From positions 20,584,001-20,648,000 of the forward strand of contig NC_043016.1 of assembly GCF_006345805.1 (NCBI RefSeq): 64,000 nt of DNA, in the 5' to 3' direction. The DNA comes from Octopus sinensis. Its lineage: Eukaryota. This document shows, in pieces, positions 90-18,961 of this stretch. Within the stretch, counting starts at the first letter, position 1, and every line of letters begins with the position of its first letter. The position numbers and the translations under genes were made by a program. A model generated the notes under the pieces. The model was not told where the DNA came from. It did not search any database and saw only the letters and a program-made list of their open reading frames with translations.

Positions 90-171
90 TCTCATCCAAA
101 TTGTCAGCGGCCGTTAATGGTATTTGGTTCCAAAGAAGGGATGCTGCATCTTCTTTTGGTGGATCAGGGAT
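90..171 (-). CDS. MEA1: MEA1-like protein, downstream coding exon (IPDPPKEDAASLLWNQIPLTAADNLDE)
   Basis: Acceptor TGTTTTCAG|ATC and donor GAGA|GTAAGT; 82 nt; in frame with the phase-0 donor at 7719. IPDPP matches the MEA1 LPDPP motif. C-terminal exon(s) lie outside the window. Confidence 0.7.
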
Positions 172-1879
172 CTGAAAACAATTATAATAATCAAAATATA
201 TATGTAGTTTTTCAATACAGTTCAATGAAATAGTTCACATAGAAATGACAAGTGGTTTCAGCTTGATTTAAGATTTGAAACTTTTGGGTAGAACTTGGAA
301 AAAAACAAAATAAAAAAAAAACAGGCTCCATAATATTTAAAACAGATCTAAGGAGTAATCATGAGTAATACCAGTGCTTTTGGCTATGTTAAAGAGCCAA
401 GTAGTGATTTTTTCTCTACAAAAAGCAGAATAATTTTATTCCCATCAATGACCTTCATCAATTCACAATTATATATTTGATTATCCATTGATTATTCATC
501 ATAATTAATTATCCATCAATATATCTTTAATTATTCATCATTATATTTTTAATTATCCATCACTGTAACTTTATCAATCTATCATTATACACTTATTGTT
601 GTGTCATGGGAGGTTCATTATGCCAATAATAATAAACATACACACTGGTTCAATATCACTTATTTATTGTTAGTCAATCATTAATTATCTAACCAACTAA
701 CTAATCGATCTTTATCTAATTTATTGGTTAAACAATCATTTGGTTGAAATTTAAAGGGCTGTCAGTGATACACTTAGGGTAGAGATCAGAGACAATAAAA
801 TTTCATAGATCACTATCATAATTATTTATGTATCCAACGAGGATTAGAGAAAGCAATAAAAATGGGAAGACAGTGAAAGAAAAAGAAAGAAGAAGGATTA
901 TAAGGGAGGATTAGTCTTTGCAAATTCACCAAAGATAACCAAAGCTCAGGCTGGCCTCAAAAGCCCTGTGACCATTCAAGTGCTTTAAATTAGTATATAT
1001 GTTATCACACACACCTACATACACTCATGCAAGTTTAAGCAATATATTATTTTATACATTCTCAAACACATGAATATATAGACCTAAAACTTTTAAATAT
1101 ATATATATATATAAACAACTTATAAACAAGTTGGCAAGCTTTCCTCGATTTCAGCTCTACGTGTTTTTTGTAGCGAATAAATAATATGTGGAAATTGACG
1201 ATTTAAAAGTCTGTTATCACAGCATATTGGCATAGAAATAATTTTCTTTAGCCCTTGTTTATAAGTTGTTTATAATTTTAACCTTAAAGGTATTTTACTA
1301 AGCTGCCACATTTTTTGATGGAATTTTTTTCTGTAAAAAAACTTCATCCTATATTAGTAGTATATATATATATATATATATATACATACACATATATATG
1401 ATACATACATACACATTTACACACACACACATAAATGTGTATACATATATATTATAAACAAACATAGGAATTAAGATGACAGCATTACATTTATTAATCA
1501 GTTATGATCATTTTGAAAATTAGCGGAATCATTATATCAATTACAGTGCTGGACTATGTTAAAACAGAATTATGTAAATCCATATGATATTAAATGAAAG
1601 TCTCATCAACCATCTCTTAAGACTGGTTATAAGGGTAATACTAATGTAAATACCCAAATTTGGTTAAATAAATATAACGAGAGGGAGTGGTTTAGAAGAT
1701 GAGCACAATAAATTAAATAGAAAGTTGTCACACTATCAGAGCAACACTCAAAGGAGAGCTGCAATGAGAGGGATGACAGATGGAAGGGGTGATCTAAGAA
1801 ATGAAATAGGGTGAAGGGCTCATTTGTGCATATATATATATATACACACACACAGTGCTTTTAGAAATCAGTTTCACAG

Positions 1880-2520
1880 AGATGGTCAGGTTTTCTCAAG
1901 AACTTCATATCACCAGTCATCCCAATCTTTTGGCATCTCTTCTGTGAGGTAAACTTTTATCACTTCATTCTATGTCCTCCGGGGGCTTCCTCTTTTGCAC
2001 ACTTCATCCACATTAAGTGATCAGCACTTCTTTATACAACTGTCCTCACCCATATGCAAGCCATGGCCATACCAGCACAGTCTTCTCTCTTGCACAATAT
2101 GTCTGATTCCTCTTATGTCCAGGTTTTCTCTCAGAACATTTTAACTATATCTTCCATGCACACTTACATTGCACATCCAATAAGTGTGCATATTTGCTTC
2201 ATTTCTTCCCAGTCTTCTTAAATCCTCTGTATCCAAGGCCTATATCACATTACTATGTAGCATTGTGGTTCTAACACAACTGTCATACAATCAGCTCTGC
2301 ACTCTATGGGAAAAACTTTTGTTTCTAGCAGCAGTAGTAGCTCCATGAACTTTCTCTAATCTGTTTGTAATTTGGTTAATGTATTTTTGGAGTAACACCC
2401 CTGTGCTAATTACATCTGCTAGGTAGCAAAAGCTTCAACTATTTCTTGTGAGTGATCCAAGCATTCAAATAGACTATTTCCAGTGAGTTCCCTGTAACTA
2501 CGGCTCAAGTGTATCTAGCA
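1880..2520 (-). mobile_element. Decayed RTE-clade LINE 3' fragment
   Basis: Reverse complement resembles the RTE 3' coding region at 5300-7000 (ETW, WYGH-type motifs); many stops. Confidence 0.55.
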
Positions 2521-2563
2521 CATACAAAACTTATGTTCCCTGTTAGTCTGCTCATTATTCCAC

Positions 2564-2912
2564 ACTAGCACTATGACCCGGCAACACTGGGTCAGTGCTA
2601 GTGCATGCATATACAGCTGCGTGCGTGCACACATACACGAGAGTACTGTCCAAATCTCCGACCAATCACATACAGCTAGCTGGCATTCAATTGGCGTATC
2701 AAGTTTCGGGCATTTTGATTGGATTTTGGATAGAAAATTCACCAAAAATCACTTCTATTGATTTTTTTAATGGCTTTGCGGGGTGACTGGGGAAATGTAA
2801 AGATGTGCACGACCACCCTTGGACGGTTTTAAACGACCATAGAAAGTGTGAGCCCTCTAACTGAAAAATTGTGGATTTGTATAAAGGACACACACAGAGA
2901 CATTTTGCCGTT
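2564..2912 (-). mobile_element. Non-autonomous Helitron-like element
   Basis: Terminal GC-rich hairpin with CTAG (2562-2603); the other end resembles the acacacagac motif near the 5' ends of other Helitrons here. Confidence 0.5.
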
Positions 2913-5739
2913 TGTCTTTGGGTTACACTGGGTAGAGAGTATGGAGTTAATATCTACTTTATGCATACTGAGAAAGGCTATTTCTGTGAAGAGACCAGGC
3001 TCCTGTCTTCTTTCCTACTAACTAAAACCTTAGTCCTTGCTAACCCTATCTTAAGGCCTCTTGAACCTAGGTTTAGATTCCATGCTGAGCATTCATTTTC
3101 TCTCATTTATCGTTATCAGCTGTGGTTAAAAAAATACCTGTACTTTCTTCAACCTGTTCTTATGTTGTTTACTTTAGTTTTGCAACAAACACCTACCATA
3201 CTAATAACATCTTTTTGGTAACAAAAGCTATCAACTACTTAAGAGATTCTATTTCAGGTGTGTTCATAGTGTGTACTGCTCTAGCGTATATGTCATGTAT
3301 GAAGCTTTTGTTCTCTGTTAGACTGGCTGCAACTTCATTACATCTCTTACGAGTCCATAGCTTACATTAGGTACTGCACTTGGAGTTTATAACTACTCCT
3401 TCCTTGTAGAGTGAGCAAGATCATTTCCCTCAAGATATCAGGGTCCTGTCTTCTTTATTACTAAAACTTTAGCTTTTGCTAAGTTTTCCCTGAGGTGTCT
3501 AAATTCTGTTTTTCTTTCCTCATATCCTGTGTCTAAAACTTCACTTTTTTCCATGCTATATGTTAAGTGGTAGCAATGTTAAGCAATCATAGTGAAAATG
3601 TGCCTTTTTTCCACCTTTTGTTTTGCTTGGATATTTTATATGGCCTCATGTCTTTGGCATGAGGCAACCATACTGCTTGGTCATATGCAGTGCACCTGAC
3701 CAACCCTCCCCCACTACCTATACAGAATGCTCTCTCTCTCTCTCTCTCTCCCACTTCTATCTAGTGGTCTATCTCCTGATAAATGTGGCAAGTGTGAAGC
3801 AAATGAATGACAGTGAAGTAGATGCAGGTTGAAATTTATTTCAAATTATATACAATATGTTTGGGAAATGTGCATGCAAGCTTTCTTTTCAGATGCAGAA
3901 TGCTGTCCTCCACTCCTGTGTCTCCTTTGGTGCACACCTTCCACACACTTAGAGTCGGCACGTTCCATGTGGGTACATTGAAAGGTAGGTCTGGTGAGAT
4001 TTTTGAGATGCTTGAACAGTGGTGTGTAGATGTGTGTTGCATCCAAGAAGTAACATGGAGGAGGTTCTGCCAAATTTCTCACAGGCAAAGAGTATAGGTA
4101 TAAAATCTTCCGGGTAGGGAACACTGATGGTGTTGGTGGTGTAGGCATACTTCTTGCTGAGAAATTGGTTGATAAGGTAATTGAGATAGTCAGTGTGTGA
4201 TAGAATACTTAGACTAGTTTTTCAAAGTGGAACAGCAACTATTATCTTAGCCTACACCCAACAATGAGGACTACATGATGAACAAAAAGGCCAATTTTAT
4301 GACACCGTTGACAAATGACAGAGAGGTTCTCTTTGTGGCTGGTGACTTCAATGGCATGCATGGTGGCAATGGATTCAGTTTTGGCAATGTGGAGGGAACC
4401 AGGTTGCTGGAGTTTTGTGATGCAAATGACCTTATGATCTGCAACTTCAGGAAACTTTAGCCAGATTGACTACATTCTTACCAGAAAATAGGAAGGAAGA
4501 CTGCTTATAAATGCTAAAATTTTCCCAGGTGAAGAATGTACCCCTCAACACAAGTTAGTCACTAGCAACTTCAGAATCAGGACTAAAAGATAACCTAGAA
4601 GACAACCAGTGTGGAAAAGAAAGATCTTGAAGCTTAAGGATCCTCTGAATGGTCAGAGATTTAGATAAGTGTTACTTGAAGTATTTGATGAAAAAGAGGA
4701 GGATATAGTGACATATAATGTGGAAGACAACTGAAGGTTCCTGCAAGAGAACCTGTTGAGGGCCACAGATCAAATTTGTTGCTGATGCAAAGTCCCTTCT
4801 TGACCTAAGGTGATATTGTGGTGGAATAGTGTGGCTGACAGGGCTATTAGAGAAAAGAAAGACTGGAAGCATGGCAGTAGCAGGTCCAACAGGAATCACC
4901 ACCAAGTGGTAAGTGAGATCTGTGCAAACCATGTACAGGGATGCTGCTAGTAAGGTGAAGGTTGGCTATGAGTATAGCAATGTACAGGAAGGAGTTTACC
5001 AAGGTTCAGTTCTCAGTCCCTTTTCATTTATCCTAGTCCTCCAGGTCTTAGCAGAGGAATTCAAGACCAGCTGGCCCTGAGAGCTCCTCTACACTGATGA
5101 CCTTGTTCTTATAGCTGAATCACTACCTGACCTAGAGAAGAATTTTCAGGTGTGGAAGCAAGGCCTGGAATCTAAGGGCCTAAGAGTTAATTTAGGAAAA
5201 AACTAAAGTTCTAGAAAGTAGGAAAACAGACAAATCATGAGCCCCTTCTGGGAGATCGTCCTGCTTGAAATGTTAGGAGCGTGTTGGTATAAATTCCATA
5301 CACTGTATTCAGTGCAAATTTTGGACACATAAGAGGTGTAGCAGTATCACAGGAAGGTTAATGGTGAATACAGTCTATGTGTGTGGCAAATGTGCAGGTA
5401 CAATAAGCACTAAAAATATGCAGACAATAGACTCCATCAAATCCTTGTAGAGATCATTAGAAGTAGTAGATAGCTTCTGTTGCATGGAAGACCAAATTAG
5501 TAGTAGAAGAGGAAGTTTTGAAAGTGTCGGTGCTAAAATCAGAATGAGCTGGGCAAAGTTCAAAGGGCTTCTACCTTTGTTGGTAACTAAAGGCCTCTCC
5601 TCTAGAGTGAAAGGCAGATTGTATGATGTGTATGTGCAGCTATGTTACATGGCAGTGAAACATGGGCTTTGACTACAGGGAACTTGCGAAGACTTGAAAG
5701 AAATGAAGCTAGCATGTGTCGCAAGTTGAGTAATGTTAA

Positions 5740-6347
5740 TATAGCTATGGTAAGACCTCACCTGGAATTTGCATCACCGGTCTGGAACCCCTATCTTGCC
5801 CAGGATATCAATCGTCTAGAAGCTGTTCAGCGACGTGCAACCAAAAGAATACCCTCCATCAGGCATTTGCCATATCCTGAACGCCTTACTTCCCTGGGCA
5901 TGGACACATTGAAACTCCGACGTCTGGCAGCTGACTTGGCAGACACCATAAAATTATCAACCATCGTACAAACAATAACTCTGAGCACCTTTTCAAACTC
6001 CACCCATCTAACACCCGTGGACATATTTACAAAGTAAGAAAACAGCACAGCTCCCATGACTTCAGGAAACATTTTTTCACGCTGAAAGTTGCTGAAGCAT
6101 GGAACAAACTGCCGGCATCAGTTGTTAGTTGTCGGAGCACTGCATCCTTCAAAACTTCCATGCTTCCTGAGATTCGCCAACACTACACTTGATTTCTCCC
6201 CTCCATACACACACAGGCATGTATCTGACTCATACATTGTTCGCTTTCCAGACATTTCTACATTACTGCATGTACTTTATATGCACTTTCTGACAAGTTG
6301 TGGTGCACCTGAGCACTGTATACAATAATTTCATTATTATTATTATA
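5740..6347 (+). mobile_element. 5'-truncated CR1/L2-type LINE inserted in the RTE
   Basis: MVRPHLEFASPVWNPY...LEAVQRRATK...WNKLP, followed by an (ATT)n tail. Confidence 0.85.
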
Positions 6348-6812: not shown

Positions 6813-7719
6813 GATGTTGTGTGCAAGGGAGAAGACTGCACTGGTTAGGTCATGTGATGCATATGGATGAGAGCATGTACATAAAAAGTGCCAAGCTCTA
6901 ATTGTAGAGGGTACCTGTGGAAGGGGTAGACCCAGGAAGATGTGAGACAAAGTGATGAGAAAGGATCTTCAGATGCTGAACGTTACTGAAGAAATGACAA
7001 GGGACCAAGAGATGTAGTTATTTGCTGTACTTGAGAAGACGCGTCAAGCTAAGTAAAATTGCTGTCATCCATACATACAGGCTTGTCTTTTACAGATGCT
7101 GGTGATTCATAAAATGCACTCGTGCCAGTGCTGCGCATACGCACTCGTGCTGGTGACACATAAAGAGCACCAGCACACTCTGTAAAGTGGTTGGCTTTAG
7201 GAAGGGCCTCCAGCCATAGAAACCATGCCACAACAGACAGTTGGAGTCTGGATAACTCCTGTCAAAACCATCCAATGCATGCCAGCATGGAAAACAGAGG
7301 TTAAATGATGATGATGATGATGATAATGAGGTTGGAGTACTGCAAAAAAAAAAAAAAATGTGGTGACTCATCACCACAAACTGAAATGAATATTCAAGTC
7401 TTAATATGAAAAAGAAAACAGCCACACAAAATTATGTGATATATGTGAAAAGAATAGCTACAGTAGAAAACTGAAGCTACACTGCACATTTGAGTCACAA
7501 ACTGAGCGTTGCTGGAGTTCTAGAATAATGTTCTGTATGATTTACTGTAATCAGATCAGTATCACAAGAAACAACTTCAAATATTACCATTGTCTGCTTT
7601 GCTTTCAAGACTGATAAATTAAGGATGACAATGTTTCAGTTGGGTGAACTTCAGTTTATAGAAATCAAAGCTAAATGGAAATAAAAACGAAATTAAAGCA
7701 ATAATATAGTTTAACTTAC

Positions 7720-8031
7720 TGATAATGGTAGTGCACCAGTTTCATCTATTCCTGCACTGAGACTGGAGACAGGGTCATTAGAATTTATTGTTTGAGGCAA
7801 TTCTTCCATGTCTTCAGAAATGTCTCGCGGATGCTGTGCCTCCAGGATCTCAGGATCCTGTGGTAACAGCTCATAACCAGCATATTCTCCATCCAATTCA
7901 CTCTCAGGATCACTTTCAGAGCTGGTTAGCGAAATAACAAAATCTGGAAGGTTCTCGTCATTTTCTACATTGTTGCTATCAGGGTGGTCATCAACGGGTT
8001 TCTCACGGTCTTCTTTAGGAACCGGAGACAT
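7720..8031 (-). CDS. MEA1: MEA1-like protein, first coding exon (MSPVPKEDREK...GYELLPQDPE...GALPLS)
   Basis: Acceptor TTTCATTCCCCAG|AACCATG (exon starts at 8035, ATG at 8031); phase-0 donor TCA|GTAAGT at 7719. The acidic protein has GYELLPQDPE, which resembles the MEA1 GYxYQPLNQDPE motif as recalled. Confidence 0.72.
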
Positions 8032-8709
8032 GGTTCTGGGGAATGAAATCAACATGCATTAAGCAGATGCTTCTAATTATGTTAATCCAAAAAAAGAAAA
8101 AAGAAAAAAAATGGATGGTGATAATCATAATTTATGAAGTCTGATGTAACTGTTCATAAAGGTAAATAAGCAATAAGAATTGCATGATACAATTTGTAAT
8201 AGAGACTGGCTCTGTTTGTTGAATTGAACAATATTTTGACAGCCTAAAACTTTCATATGTAATCATTTTCTCAACACACTCTCAAACTTTAATTATAAAT
8301 TAACAACCTAATTAATTCCTTTTGAACTACCATAAGAAAATTTATGGTATTTATAGGTGGTTTCAATCTCACAGTCACAGTAAGAAAATAAGAACTGTTT
8401 TCTTCAAAACAGTAGTTGAAAAAAAAAAGATAAACTCGAGATTCTGCTAGATATAGTCAAATGAATGATATAAAAATTTAATGATATATCTTAAAATAGT
8501 GTACCATTTAATTATATTAACCCCACCTCTCAGTAGCTAAGAGGGATTAGCTATATTGTTTAAATACCACCTTCTCTCAGTGGTGTAACATACCTTCAAT
8601 TACATATATAAAGTGGCCACTATGTGTGGTTTGCATGTTCCATATTACACCACCATCCTCTATATTTCCATCACAATCTTTCTTACACTATATATATATA
8701 TATATATAT

Positions 8710-9040
8710 TGGTAAAAACGGTAAGATAAAAGAAAGAAAGAGACCTCAATATTATGTAAATAGAGGAATTTATCTGTAAATATATATGACAATTATTCTG
8801 TAGGCAAGATAAAACTCTGAGTTTCGGATGCCGAGGTGGAAATCCACACCACCATCTCTTCAGTTATCCGGCCATCTGAAAAACGCAATGAAATAACAAA
8901 ATCTGGAAGGTTCTCGTCATTTTCTACATTTTCAGATGGCCGGATAACTGAAGAGATGGTGTTGTGGATTTCCACCTCGGCATCCGAAACTCAGAGTTTT
9001 ATCTTGGCTACAGAATAATTGTCACATATTATATTTACAG
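8710..9040. mobile_element. Penelope-like element end in fold-back arrangement, between (TA)n tracts
   Basis: ~110-bp inverted arms (8774-8882 and 8929-9040), homologous to 16413-16490, which lies downstream of a GIY-YIG ORF. Confidence 0.8.
8939..9008 (+). ncRNA. Minimal type-I hammerhead ribozyme motif (mirror copy on the minus strand at ~8803-8872)
   Basis: GCCGGATAA-CUGAAGA-[stem II]-GAAA-CUC A GAG-UU-UUAUCUUGGC; palindromic stem III; GUU cleavage triplet. Confidence 0.65.
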
Positions 9041-9936
9041 GTATATATATATATATATTTCTAATCATTAGAAATGATGATGTTAGAGAATTGTTATTTC
9101 GAAGCATTGTAATATAGAAAATATGAACAATTATAACAGATAGCCGTTCAGTGAAATTATTTTTATTAAATGAAAGATTCGTTATGCATTCAAATACGAT
9201 GGAGATTCAGCTATTTATTATTCAAGGAGAATAGTGATAATTAGCTGAATCTCCATTGATTAAAGCTAATATTCTATTAGTTCTGTAATAATCAACCAGA
9301 GCACTTTTATCAAGATAAACTTAGTGAATTAATCATCAATCTTTAATGGAGTTAACTTCAAAATAATATAACACAGTAAATTATTTTTTGGAATAGGGTT
9401 GGTGGCTGTTCTTCAAATATGTTTTGCTAGGGTCAAAAATTCTGCTTAGCGCCAGCTATCTGCCCATGTACAAGCATGTTCTGCTACTATCAACATTTAT
9501 GAACAAGGTTGTCTAAGTTTAATGACATCTTTGGAAAAGAAGTACCTTTAACCATTCTTTAATTTACAGTATCATTCTGCTACTCACCCTCAGTGATTGA
9601 CAGATTGTTGTCCCACCCACTTTGCATTTCTTAGATGTTAGTAACTCTGATGACAATAATTGACAAAGATAGTGTGATTTTGTTTAGAAATTTTACTTGT
9701 TGATGATCTATTAATTAATCAACATATCACTCCTTGCTTGTTTATTTGGTTAGCCTGATGAGTTGGGAATTGTGTAATATATCATGTAATCTTATGGATG
9801 TTGTGCATACTGCATACCTGACAGTACTACGCTTACATTCAAAGTAAAGTTTCTTAAAGAGTCAATTGTTGCAATACCAGACAATCCATTTATCTGTGTT
9901 TATTATACAAACAGATAAATATATACACCCAGAGAA

Positions 9937-10780: not shown

Positions 10781-12455
10781 TTAAGGACATTACACAATAC
10801 TTAATTTGTGTTCTTTGTTTCTACATGGGATTCTTTCCACAAACAAGTTTGCCATATAACATCTACTTTGGGATCCTTTGATTATTCTCCTGAACAATGC
10901 ATCCAGTCTAACATAAATAGCACTTGTGCAGCATTGCTTTCATGCTCAGGACATCAGCTCCCCTTAGTATCTTTGTGTATGGAGTCTGCATAGACCAACG
11001 AATATTCAAAATGTGTCTGAGACATCTTTGACCGAAGAATTCAAGAACCTCTACATATGCCTGTAAAGAGCCCATGTTTCATATGAGTAAAGAAGTGCAT
11101 CAGCACACATGTATAACACTCAGCAACTTTTGTTCAACTTGTGATGCTATGTTGGGACCAGATCTGAGAGTTAAGAGCACTGAAGGAATCAGTTACCTTA
11201 TGAAGCCTTAAAAATATTGGGGTGGCCAAAAAGTCTGTTCGTTTTTTATTTTTTAGGTGAAAATCAAAACAAAGTAAACAATTGTGAAAAATGTAATGGT
11301 CAAATAGCTTTCAGGGGCATTAATGTGGAATACAAATTGCAGCATAACTACAAAATTCTGCCCAGAGCGACTTTGTTTCACCAAACTTTTCTTAAAAATG
11401 CATATATTTATGGAAAATTTCTAGACATTTTAGATTATGTAGAAATAAGATAATTTTTTTATGTAGTGTTTCAGATAATTCTCCGCCTCTAATCTTGATA
11501 AAAGTTTTTGGAAACGTGTTTAAATATTTTATCTCTAACGTAAATCACAACCTCTTGACATTTGTTGCCCCACCCCCTGTGCTCACACCGACCCCCAAAT
11601 TACGCTCAAAATACAACAGTTGCCGACAAAGATACTTATATAGTACAAGAAATTGAAAGGGAACGAACATTACAAGTTGCCCTTCATCTGGGTGGAAAGA
11701 GGTGCCCCATTGAGGACGTTGTGAGCAAACAAGGCGGTGGCATCAATGTAGTGCTATGGAGGGCGCAGGGTGTTTGCAAAGGTCGTGATTTATGTTAGAA
11801 AGGAAATACTTAAATCAGGATCAAAACATATTTTAAACACATAAAAAAAATCTTTACTAAGATTAGAAGAGTAGGATACTGTCAGTAGAAATGATGTATC
11901 AAGGTCCAGTATAATTTCACTTTATAATTCTTTATCGTATTTAGTAATTTCCCAAACAAATTAACATAAGGTTTATTTTTAACGCAAATACCCATAAGAA
12001 AGGGACAAGTTGGAAGGGGTAGCGTAACAAAAATATGGATAGTAAACAAAATCAGCTGTTTGATAAAGTTATTCTAATCTGGGGTTGGGGCATTAGTAGA
12101 ATGTCATTCAGTTCAAGGGGGGCACCGAGCTACAAATGGTTGAGAATTACTGCATTAAACTAAATATAAGTTATTTGCTAAATTAACATGTTCTCTAAAA
12201 AGCGATGTGAAGTAGGATGAGGGAGATTTCATTGTATAATAACGATGTTGATATTAATTTTTAAAGAGTTAACTGCAAGGAAAAACTAAACGATAGATTG
12301 TTACATTTATTCCTGTTCAAAAACAAATGAAATGTAACTTCACAGTGGATGTGGTAAAGAAGTAAATAAACGTGGTAAAATACAATGAAATATTCAATAA
12401 AAGCATGCGAATCGTTGATAGAAACAGAAATAGAAAGATTGTGTTAATGCCTCAC

Positions 12456-12889: not shown

Positions 12890-13102
12890 AAAAATCATAT
12901 ACATAAACTTCGTTAAACTGACTAACATCAAACTAATCCCTATAGTTCCTATTTAATGAACTGTTAAGTGCATAGATCAGTTTGTTAGCTTATGCTGTTG
13001 AACCCAGACCAGTGTTATGCCATTTATATCTGAACAGATGTTCCATCCGTATCCAGCGCTTTCTTCAAAGATGGTGCAATGTTGAACATTATATCCTTTC
13101 TT

Positions 13103-13517: not shown

Positions 13518-13849
13518 AATCCCTATAGTTCCTATTTAATGAACTGTTAAGTGCATAGATCAGTTTGTTAACTTATGCTGTTTAACTCAGACCAGTGTTG
13601 AGCCATTTATATTTGAACAGAGGTTCCATCCGTATCCAGCGCTTACTTCAAAGATGGTGCAATGTTGAACATTATTATATCTTTTCTTTTATAAAGACCG
13701 TTGGGTGTGATTTGAAGAAGCTCTAACTGTATCGGAAATTATGCACTACCGAAGTGAGAACTTGAATATTTGAATTGTTTGTGTGATAGTGACGTAATTA
13801 ATAATCAACGATAAACATTTTTGGGCAGCATGTTACTGTCACTAAATTG

Positions 13850-14537: not shown

Positions 14538-15829
14538 TATCTTTTTTCTAATATACCGTCAGAAAAAAATGTTCTAGAACAGGGGTCGCCAAGCTTTTTC
14601 GATCATCCTCCCCATAGCCACTTCCGCATCGACCTCTCTCCTCATTTAAAATATTTTAATACCCTCTCCTACCCTACCATATCTTAAATGTGTCCTGGGT
14701 TCTGATGCTGGCAATTAAAATGTTAGCTAAAATTAAGAAATTCTATTGAAGATGACACTTTTTACATTGAAAACTATGTGTACGAATATACAGTATTAAA
14801 CTTTCAATGTTTATGAAATCACTTTCACCGTCAGAAAATATGAAAAGTAGTGCATAATTTCCGATACAGTTAGAGCTTCTTCAAATCACACCCAACTGTC
14901 TTTATAAAAGAAAAGATATAATAATGTTCAACATTGCACCATCTTTGAAGTAAGCGCTGGATACGGATGGAACCTCTGTTCAAATATAAATGGCTCAACA
15001 CTGGTCTGGGTTAAACAGCATAAGCTAACAAACTGATCTATGCACTCATCATATTGCTGGAATATTTTTTTATTGAAATTGACAACATTAATATGAGGGA
15101 TGAGTATGACGCTAAGTATTTCAAATAGTTCATCGGGGTGAGCTGGCCTTTCGCACACCGACCCCCATTCGACCCCTTTGCTACCATTCATCCCCTTTAA
15201 TTCCCCGCCGACCCCTAGGGGATCCCATGTTCTAGAATATTCTGTAAACCATTTGAAAGGAAAATTTAACTGATTGACTGAGGTTACAGTCACACGAGTT
15301 TATTGCCTCCTACCCCAAAGCTGGGAAATATGAATTGATGGTTCAAAACACAGTCATTTCACTACAAAAGAACACAAGTTAGTTCTGTAATGCATATTCT
15401 TTCCATTTTTTCCCCTTTAAGAAGCTTTTAGAAATAACAACCAAAAAATCAAATTTGAATACTTGGAGTGAAACAATTGAATACAACCGTTCTTTAAAAA
15501 TTACGATGTTCATTTTTAGGGAGTGAGTTAAGCAGGGAACATATCTTTCCTATTTTTATTTTATAGACTAATAAACCATTTATTTTACAGAACTATTGGT
15601 GCTTACAGCAATGAACTACACTAGTTCCAAGTTAGTCTATGAGTAGTGGTTAAGTGTGTATCAGTATGTGTTCAGATGAACAAATGCGACAGGCATGTGG
15701 ATGCCTTTGAAGTAAACAAATATATGACATCGATTCATAGTTAAAATAATTAATATTAATCACTGTCATGAATTGTTTCGAGTTAAGTCACAACCTTAGC
15801 GTCATTATATGTTCAGAGAAACACCGTTT

Positions 15830-16498
15830 CGACGAAGAACTACGTGGGCCTTACAGAGGGTAATTTCAAGACCAGGTTCAATAACCACACTTTGAGCTTT
15901 AGGCACTGGAACAAAAGAAAAACGACACAATTATCTAATCATATTTGGTCTTTAAGAGATAAAGATGTCGATTATAACATACATTGGAAGATTTTGGCCA
16001 AATGTAAGCCCTATACCAACGGCAGCGGAAGGTGCGGTCTATGCGACATGGAGAGATGGCTTATCTGGAAAAGCAGCTTAGACCCTACTACATGTCTAAA
16101 CTCAAGGACAGAACTTTTCGAATCATGCCCATATGTGACTAAATTTCTGTTGCGTTTTTGGTCCCCTAAAGAAAACAGATAGAACACGCTTTCTATGTTA
16201 TGTCCCAAGAACGTTTTTTTTTACCTCATCATACCTTCTATCATATATTTTTTATATATTTTTTATGTATTTTTATATAATTTTTTTATGGCGAAAAATG
16301 CGAGTGAAGATGTGTACGTTTACATAGCGATGTATAAGTACGCAGGCAAGCAGAGTTATAACACAGTAACTTCCCTTTGTATAACGGTATTTTTTCATAG
16401 CGTTTTCAAATAGCCAGATAACCGAAGAGATGACGTTGTGGATTCCCACTTCGGCATCTGAAACTCAGAGTTTTATCTTGACTATCGAGTAATGTAAC

Positions 16499-16500
<2 letters not shown>
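15830..16500 (+). mobile_element. Penelope-like element 3' part: GIY-YIG endonuclease, then degenerate hammerhead, then (TA)n
   Basis: YVGLTEGNFKTRFNNH...CGLCDME...LNSRTE; CCGAAGA...TGAAACTCAGAGTT at ~16413-16482. Confidence 0.85.
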
Positions 16501-17440: not shown

Positions 17441-17464
17441 CCTAAAAACAAAATCAAACGGGTT

Positions 17465-17667
17465 GGTACTACTTGAGAACAGTGGTCCCGGTGCGCACTC
17501 TCGCGTAGTCGCGCATCCGCGCTAGCTAGTCGTGACTAGTCGATCCTACAACGACTACCTAGCAAGTAAATAAAACACAAAGTAAGAATCGACTAGTCAT
17601 GACTAGCTAGCGCGGATGCGCGACTACGCGAGTGCGCGCACCGGGACCATTGTTCTCAAGTAGTACC
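17465..17667. mobile_element. Palindromic MULE-type MITE, family C
   Basis: ~85-bp TIRs GGTACTACTTGAGAACA...; no clear TSD on this copy. Confidence 0.85.
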
Positions 17668-17729
17668 TTTCCGGGTGGGTAAAACAGTAGAACACAGCGT
17701 CAACAAGCGGTTTCAGTTGTTGACTGCCA

Positions 17730-17862: not shown

Positions 17863-18196
17863 TTGTCAACACGCGCTTTCTTGCAGACGAAAGAGTTCTC
17901 ATGTTCGGCTTATTACTACGGAAACAGGCATGAATGTGTCTGTGGCTTACGTTTAGCTAAAATTACCTAAAATTTTCAAACTTTAATAGATAATAACTCT
18001 TTACTTATTGAATTATGATGATCAGCCTATAAAGGTGTATCATTACATTGAGTATGAAATTAATTTGAACAGAAATTGACTTTGACAGCCAAAAAGAAAA
18101 GATCCAGGAAAAGGCCGATATGTAAACTAGCGGGGTATTCCATGTAGAGTTTTCAGTAGCACAGAAAATTTTCGGTAGTTGTAGGTGAGAAAGGCA

Positions 18197-18518
18197 GGTA
18201 CTACTTGAGAACAGCGGTCCCGGTACGCGATCTCGCGTACTCGCGCATCCACGCCAGCTAGTCATGACTAGTCGATCCTTACTTTGTGTTTTTTTTGTGT
18301 TATTTACTTTGTTTAAAAAATTATTTACTTTGTGTTTTTATGTTTTATTTACTTTGTTTAAAGAAAATTATTTACTTTGTATAAAAAAAAAATGATTTAT
18401 TTTGTGTTTTATTTACTTTGGTAGGTAGTCGTTGTAGGATCGACTAGTCACGACTAGCTAGCGTGGATACGCGGTTGCGCGTGTGCGTGCACCGGGACCA
18501 CTGTTCGCTAGTAGTACC
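18197..18518. mobile_element. Palindromic MULE-type MITE, family C
   Basis: Same TIRs; 9-bp TSD AGAAAGGCA; spacer expanded by TTTATTTACTTTG repeats. Confidence 0.88.
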
Positions 18519-18961
18519 AGAAAGGCAAGTGAATGAACTTCATAAGCAGACTGCAGCGTTAGAACTCATATTTAAACAATTCTTATTGCATGCAGACCGT
18601 ATCGTATATAAATTATTCCTGCTTAACACAATACGGTCTTAAGAAATATATGAACGATACATTATTACGTTTCACTATTTCTCTATGATTAGTAATCTTT
18701 TTATCTCCACAGAAGACAAACCAATATTATTATTACAATAATTATTTTATTATTCTTGCTGGTGAAGTTATTAAAAAAAAACACAATTACTAATTGAAGG
18801 GAAATTACTATTTGTCTACTAAACAGAGTAACTTCCCTTAAAATATTATTGATTAATAGCATGAAATTAGAGCAGGCATATTCAAGCTATATTCCAGAAG
18901 TTTTGAGATATTTTTAGGAGAACGAGTTATAAATGTCCTAGATGATTGTAAATTTAGTTTA

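Follow-up and report, generated by a model that had tools for sequence, protein, structure and literature searches.

A Penelope-like hairpin near a MEA1 exon

The window analysed here is a 64,000-nucleotide stretch of the Octopus sinensis genome (assembly GCF_006345805.1, contig NC_043016.1, positions 20,584,001 to 20,648,000). It carries two exons of a MEA1 gene on its minus strand, together with a hairpin built of Penelope-like element (PLE) sequence. The features are as follows.

90-171, minus strand: next MEA1 exon; a contig of a run presumed to be RNA has a loose end that maps to 150-167, the boundaries are AG/GT and the frame continues
7720-8037, minus strand: MEA1 exon with its ATG at 8031, by protein identity; the exact span of the same contig
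7931-7971, plus strand: donor of the filler, inside a coding exon of MEA1; the plus strand here is antisense to the mRNA
8689-8709, no strand: left (TA)n target tract, from the sequence
8710-8773, minus strand: 64-nt 3' tail of the PLE pLTR (long 3' end); it ends many genomic copies and matches long elements
8774-8893, minus strand: left arm, a 5'-truncated PLE pLTR fragment in reverse orientation (sequence comparison)
8808-8868, minus strand: type-I minimal hammerhead motif, sense on the MEA1 strand (motif and helix scan)
8890-8930, plus strand: filler, read as templated; identical to 7931-7971, with microhomology to the arms at GAAA (8890-8893) and TT (8929-8930)
8929-9040, plus strand: right arm, a 5'-truncated PLE pLTR fragment with the short 3' end and no tail (sequence comparison)
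8943-9003, plus strand: type-I minimal hammerhead motif (CUGAAGA, stem II, one extra nt, GAAA, 4-bp stem III with a 1-nt loop, GUU)
9042-9058, no strand: right (TA)n target tract, from the sequence
15787-16500, plus strand: separate 5'-truncated PLE copy (end of the GIY-YIG ORF plus pLTR) belonging to a related subfamily; the arms did not come from it

The 104 codons of the donor exon match, without a single difference, a part of the protein that bears the name male-enhanced antigen 1. This named protein, 100% identical to the exon, carries PF06910 (E 6e-17), while Pfam on the exon alone and an Atlas search returned nothing informative. Besides 7720-8037, the contig from the presumed RNA run includes sequence of the exon at 90-171, and its 106 upstream letters do not fall anywhere in 7300-9900, so that the hairpin unit is probably situated in the first MEA1 intron; the long double-stranded RNA that the first-pass annotation had envisaged in the MEA1 pre-mRNA is accordingly plausible, with its loop in the same sense as the exon. 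On the minus strand near 12454 a candidate 5' splice site (AG/GTGAGG) was noticed by eye, which could end the missing 106-nt first exon. Between the two MEA1 exons, in intron sequence at 5375-6192, there are fragments that we take to resemble the ends of LINE reverse transcriptases.

The two inverted arms of about 110 bp that had been described at this site were confirmed, being 97% complementary over 101 nt (8782-8882 against 8929-9029), and the RNA of the unit is predicted to fold with a minimum free energy of -191.7 kcal/mol (z -27). What had been overlooked is the 64-nt tail: the left arm extends outward through this optional 3' end to about 8710 and inward to 8893, where it shares GAAA with the 41-nt filler, and the right arm shares TT with it. 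The tailed left arm reaches further 5' than the untailed one. Both ends of the insertion lie within the (TA)n tracts already recorded on either side of the unit, where a target-site duplication is not readable. The arms had also been called homologous to the end of the GIY-YIG Penelope copy at 16413-16490. They are indeed related to it (84-85% identity over 16403-16500); however, copies elsewhere in the genome reach 97%, which rules the window's own copy out as their source.

Two further groups of inverted repeats were observed in the window. A 205-nt pair (13545-13749 and 14847-15051, 98% identical, 1.1 kb apart) contains nested duplicated pieces, has a related sequence at 12935-13092, and looks like a non-autonomous DNA transposon. 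The other, at 17464-17668 and 18196-18519 and at 17516-17616, comprises nested inverted repeats and a strong local hairpin, with a sub-threshold Rfam miRNA match.

The exact copy of exon sequence reported in the loop was borne out. Positions 8890-8930 are identical over 41 nt, on the same strand, to 7931-7971, 959 bp away, and the identity is not extendable on either side. When the first 30 nt of the filler were searched against the 2.72-Gb genome with up to 2 mismatches, only the loop and the donor were found (reversed control 0). This excludes chance and an origin in the element, and the filler is thus no part of an element consensus. At the divergence of the arms the probability that 41 nt remain unchanged without selection is 0.3-0.5, so that the perfect identity of filler and exon needs no selection.

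The parent family and its head-to-head insertions

The parent of the arms appears, from its sequence, to be an EN+ Penelope-like element with an RT and C-terminal GIY-YIG ORF, pLTRs, a tail at one end and an inverted 5'-truncated partner, and the PLE origin, the hammerhead motifs and the inverted 5'-truncated arms put forward at first pass are all supported. Long copies at two loci (L094 and L095) contain 717-aa open frames with FDIVDFY, MGSYDG, YKDD, YVGLTE and CGLC, which we take to be RT and GIY-YIG motifs. Atlas neighbours carry GIY-YIG and RVT_1. Pfam gave no match on the 717-aa ORF, its score on the fragment in the window was 21.5 bits (below the 22.6 cutoff), and a PDB sequence search with the PLE ORF returned nothing relevant. 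A Cys cluster, which bears on the Zn-finger-like linker motif of the Neptune clade, precedes the GIY-YIG region in the long ORF, and the motif regular expression did not match it. In L095 a pLTR stands on both sides of the ORF, and the arms match both at 84-88%. The family is large, with 19,213 first-look candidates for the endonuclease region. Across 30 genomic loci, two of which are the same insertion, it shows two alternative 3' ends, the short one or one with the 64-nt tail added, each joining (TA)n, and solo copies end at either boundary.

That PLEs have inverted pLTRs, one-sided tails and hammerheads and insert into microsatellites is established in the accessible text of PMC8557442 and PMC3846280. 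The octopus family resembles EN+ PLEs as these sources portray them in its RT and GIY-YIG ORF, its pLTRs with a type-I hammerhead, its 5' truncation and its inverted 5'-truncated partner; together with PMC11167929 they also provide parallels for the tail at one end only, the AT-rich or (TA)n targets and the two RT start sites bounding the tail. In contrast, the tail measures 64 nt here as against 30-40 nt in the PLEs so described. Those accounts, as far as accessible, report host DNA captured between pLTRs but mention no short fillers at the inverted junction taken, as here, from no more than 2 kb away or from the ORF start.

The architecture seen at MEA1 is widespread. Exact-anchor patterns recovered 219 head-to-head pairs with an anchor gap of 100-150 nt and 58 with a gap of 151-200 nt, as against 0 in the reversed controls, so that the genome holds at least 277 such fold-backs, a lower bound. 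We analysed 98 loci, the MEA1 locus included, the larger set contributing every one of its 50 listed loci (from contigs C1 to C4 only) and the smaller set 48 of its 50, with 2.7-8.6 kb of flank searched per locus; an insertion identical to that of L125 (L091) and a near-duplicate of another C27 locus were left out. Junctions and fillers were found to differ from locus to locus, and an amplified MITE-like unit is ruled out by these differences and by the unique filler at MEA1.

One tailed and one untailed arm were present at 95 of the 98 loci by regular expression and at 97 after two corrections made by eye (p 6e-28 against a coin toss); no such count is given for PLEs in the accessible parts of the earlier descriptions. 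Arms within a locus share subfamily marks, differing by a median of 3 positions as against 10 between loci (87 of 98 loci). The arms reach equally far 5' in 62 loci, the tailed arm reaches further in 19 and the untailed arm in 16, and in those 16 the untailed arm holds 6-115 nt of element sequence absent from its partner. Truncation points are symmetric in 63 of the 98 loci (permutation mean 27, maximum 39). At the junctions themselves the arms overlap in 38 loci, meet bluntly in 4, and are separated by 1-9 nt in 15 and by at least 10 nt in 41.

Several loci showed more complex arrangements. At L113 (G000:C3:147485471) both arms are untailed and the host flanks are mirrored on both sides, which reflects either a longer inverted duplication centred on the PLE junction or an assembly error. 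At L140 (3383-4041) a second, inverted copy of the complete head-to-head insertion lies some 200 bp from the first, on the other side of a TA tract, and an apparent local donor there was dropped as a duplicate of the insertion. One fold-back junction was listed twice, at G000:C27:10006524 and C27:10365167, 360 kb apart, as a segmental duplication or a haplotig. Many head-to-head pairs include the ORF end (e.g. G000:C2:175672127/175675121), and inverted arms of at least 1 kb therefore occur as well.

Many of the fillers of at least 10 nt duplicate arm sequence. Ten others map to the start of the element ORF, within L094 1767-2440 of 1767-3946, or the leading 31% of the ORF region (uniform model, p 8e-6; the boundary was set after the mapping), and no ORF copy was present in the fetched flanks of any of the ten. 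Since the ORF start lies downstream of the RT start sites and is unreachable by continuous cDNA synthesis, a jump onto element RNA is the best reading of these fillers.

A local host donor was found for four loci of the 98-locus set, namely MEA1, L067 (30 nt exact, inverted, 354 bp away; two places genome-wide), L103 (29 nt exact, 1.7 kb away; four places genome-wide) and L159 (86% over 85 nt, about 0.4 kb away, other copies of that repeat reaching 73-79%). A separate pattern search added L133 (38 nt with 1 mismatch, 713 bp away; two places genome-wide). As a control, the fillers with local donors reached at most 13-15 nt in 57-58 foreign flanks. Local capture is thus seen in at least 3 of the 97 other loci, a lower bound given the length of flank searched, and the earlier caution that the MEA1 filler might be a one-off accident does not hold. 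Candidates at L109 and L163 were not counted as local donors, nor was one at L126, a simple repeat matched equally well in 6 of 57 controls. The filler of L137 has no second genomic copy at 2 mismatches and no BLAST match to long elements, and those of L148 and L132 are likewise without an assigned source.

The donors lie on both sides of the insertions, in both orientations, 0.35-1.7 kb away. By inspection only one of the five, that in MEA1, is recognisably exonic, the other four being AT-rich single-copy DNA, dispersed repeats or a decayed frame. The expectation that loops derive from nearby sequence is therefore upheld in part of the loci, and an enrichment for exons or for one strand is not. 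The L133 donor (2915-3130) falls in a 71-aa frame that resembles the end of a decayed Helitron or PIF1 helicase, and Pfam on this frame gave no match for the helicase reading.

Origin of the filled junctions

We consider it most probable that the hairpin is a single head-to-head PLE insertion into (TA)n, in which the loop is likely a templated filler picked by microhomology during the joining of cDNA ends, and that it probably has no selected function. From the arm anatomy, the tail asymmetry, the microhomologies, the unique donor and the recurrence across loci, all of them directly observed, we infer the following integration steps. The GIY-YIG endonuclease would cut both strands in a TA tract, and each 3' end would prime reverse transcription, one at each internal start site and probably on the same RNA, giving one tailed and one untailed arm. 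Both cDNAs would stop after about 110-185 nt, and a free cDNA end could then jump by 1-4 nt of microhomology to the arm itself, to element RNA just downstream of the starts or to host sequence within about 2 kb, before the ends are united, either at once or following a short snap-back. Two routes fit at MEA1. In one, the left cDNA would have used GAAA to prime on the sense strand of MEA1, either pre-mRNA or a displaced DNA strand, with closure at TT; in the other, the right cDNA would have used TT to prime on flank DNA of the plus strand, with closure at GAAA. Either the PLE RT or Pol theta would have been the polymerase. RNA or DNA of MEA1 fits equally well as the template, and for fillers copied from RNA the priming polarity read from microhomology gave too noisy a signal. 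A unique nearby donor and microhomology at the filler ends, by which templated junction insertions are recognised, are both present at the MEA1 locus.

In vitro, the anole PLE protein was shown to cut and extend both target strands, to prefer AT-rich DNA and to begin reverse transcription at two adjacent sites, between which the tail lies (PMC11167929). The presence of one tailed and one untailed arm at 97 of the 98 loci fits one RT start site per target end, and the near-even split of the further-reaching arm between untailed and tailed is expected of two separate cDNAs. The same outline is known from L1 twin priming, described also with 3' switching, in which, according to the accessible text of bioRxiv 10.1101/2024.08.27.596794 and PMC11702581, both target ends prime cDNA on one RNA, microcomplementarity joins them, and a cDNA end occasionally switches to element RNA further downstream or to genomic DNA close by. 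Unlike the octopus arms, which copy nearly the same part of the RNA and so yield a long palindrome, the two L1 cDNAs of these accounts copy different parts and yield a 5' inversion. Priming by minimal base pairing and fillers that are flank-derived or patchwork are also features of Pol theta end joining as set out in the available portion of PMC12426944. Its insertions are there given as generally below 25 bp, and the RNA-derived fillers here point instead to the RT. In the part of bioRxiv 10.1101/2024.08.27.596794 that could be consulted, L1 templated-insertion donors lie typically within 15 bp of the site, with 22 cases in about 3,600 insertions, in contrast to the distances and the frequency of local donors found here. 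With its 41 nt the MEA1 filler exceeds the typical Pol theta insert, and its donor, at 959 bp, lies farther off than L1 donors typically do; both points count against the reading that we prefer.

A more specific form of the jump, which we hold to be possible but doubtful, is that the PLE RT itself switches to host RNA being transcribed where the element integrates, in which case the filler would be cDNA of the MEA1 pre-mRNA. Such a capture would agree with the ten fillers attributed to element RNA and with the match of 4 nt on the further-reaching arm. If it is true, head-to-head PLE insertions would routinely record RNA present at the target locus, and the genome would be seeded with many long, locus-specific dsRNA hairpins whose loops are sometimes exonic.

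It was also suggested that the polymerase jumped onto nearby host sequence and then folded back. The template jump is supported. In a pure fold-back, however, a cDNA begun at the tailed start would jump to the host, copy itself and join the TA tract through ATA microhomology at the short boundary, and this we regard as unlikely. It would account for the symmetric truncation points and for the tailed arm reaching further 5' at MEA1, and self-priming has been proposed for inverted PLE junctions in the accessible text of PMC3846280. It would likewise explain mirrored non-element bases, five of which are present at L152 and others, noted by eye, at L079 and L157, as well as the mirrored flanks of L113; an automated search for mirroring of at least 3 nt was noisy, with 3 of 41 junctions positive as against about 1 by chance, one of the three being a subfamily artefact. 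Yet in the 16 loci where the untailed arm carries element sequence missing from the tailed arm, copying one arm from the other is insufficient alone, and solo copies also end at either boundary. Conversely, symmetric stops and the mirrored bases of L152 indicate that a plain joining of two cDNAs is incomplete, which suggests that snap-back synthesis often helps to join them.

Near-perfect palindromes are fragile, and the centre of an existing hairpin might have broken (for example as a cruciform) and received local filler from Pol theta end joining after integration, independently of the PLE. Templated insertions flanked by microhomology are indeed a hallmark of Pol theta in the available part of PMC12426944; the ten fillers from the element ORF start, for which there is no local DNA copy, tie filler formation to integration instead, and such later repair is very improbable.

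The loop junction structure is that of the genome assembly. The public runs listed included none recorded as RNA. Among the contigs listed from four public runs none spans the loop junctions or an empty site, contigs breaking at TA tracts, and contigs of three DNA runs (X1, X4 and X6) pass unbroken through the donor, a weak hint, since contigs drop such links, that those runs may lack the filler copy or have had it pruned. An assembly artefact is nonetheless scarcely credible given the biological microhomology at both filler ends, the differences between the arms in tail and substitutions, and the recurrence of this architecture at independent loci where the local donors are likewise unique.

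Hammerhead motifs and the meaning of the junctions

A type-I hammerhead had been noted in each arm. Each arm does contain the motif, and yet only one copy is in sense on each strand (8943-9003 on plus, 8868-8808 on minus; 0 in 20 shuffles). Rfam on window positions 1-25000 reported no hammerhead family at E up to 1, its only matches being repeat-driven miRNA ones below the gathering score. The hammerhead is the minimum free energy fold of the isolated arm and costs 93 kcal/mol within the full hairpin on either strand, so that self-cleavage is predicted to be blocked there. The canonical CUGAAGA core is found on both arms in only 2 of the 98 loci, MEA1 among them, and the CUGA variant in 20 of 196 arms, where it is concordant within loci and tracks subfamily. 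In 144 of the 196 arms the core reads CCGAAGA instead, and the dominant subfamily seems, as far as sequence can tell, to spread with a non-canonical or dead hammerhead. Non-LTR retrozymes are likewise PLE-derived and non-coding with a type-I hammerhead, in the accessible text of bioRxiv 10.64898/2026.07.22.740005; unlike the single inverted pair with its unique junction found here, they consist of directly repeated units in tandem, every one of which has a hammerhead, and the hairpin is not assigned to them.

The most far-reaching proposal made for this hairpin was that of a guide-like or small-RNA cassette, in which a plus-strand transcript would present the antisense loop beside a hammerhead, or yield small RNAs, and so regulate MEA1. 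The perfect identity of filler and exon, the canonical core on both arms and the probable position within a MEA1 intron might be taken to favour it. The loop, however, ends 17 nt before the hammerhead core and belongs to neither stem I nor stem III, and no GAGUH-UUAUC-type substrate site is present in the two MEA1 exons checked, so that a trans-acting guide ribozyme against MEA1 is not supported. Dicer products are expected from the arms and not from the loop, and CUGA is a subfamily trait common to both arms in most loci. With the hammerhead predicted to be buried, the fillers of varied origin and the local donors in both orientations, four of the five not recognisably exonic, a functional cassette is most unlikely.

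The building of inverted pLTR structures in PLEs is stated to be open in the accessible text of PMC8557442, and the steps that follow the initiation of reverse transcription are unvalidated (PMC11167929). Among the titles and abstract openings of the open-access literature searched, none dealt with local or ORF-start fillers at inverted PLE junctions. The hundreds of natural junctions in this genome constrain the mechanism, with one arm per RT start, a shared template, symmetric stops and fillers from element RNA or host sequence, and the in vitro system already available for PLEs lends itself to testing the predictions that follow. Many introns of this genome would accordingly carry near-perfect dsRNA stems of at least 100 bp, which are likely ADAR or Dicer substrates. 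The single hairpin near the MEA1 exon is itself probably a neutral scar. A locally filled junction is likely a real and recurrent by-product of PLE integration, and a regulatory cassette is unlikely; the value of the finding thus lies in what it tells of the mechanism by which PLEs integrate, and not in gene regulation by an RNA guide.
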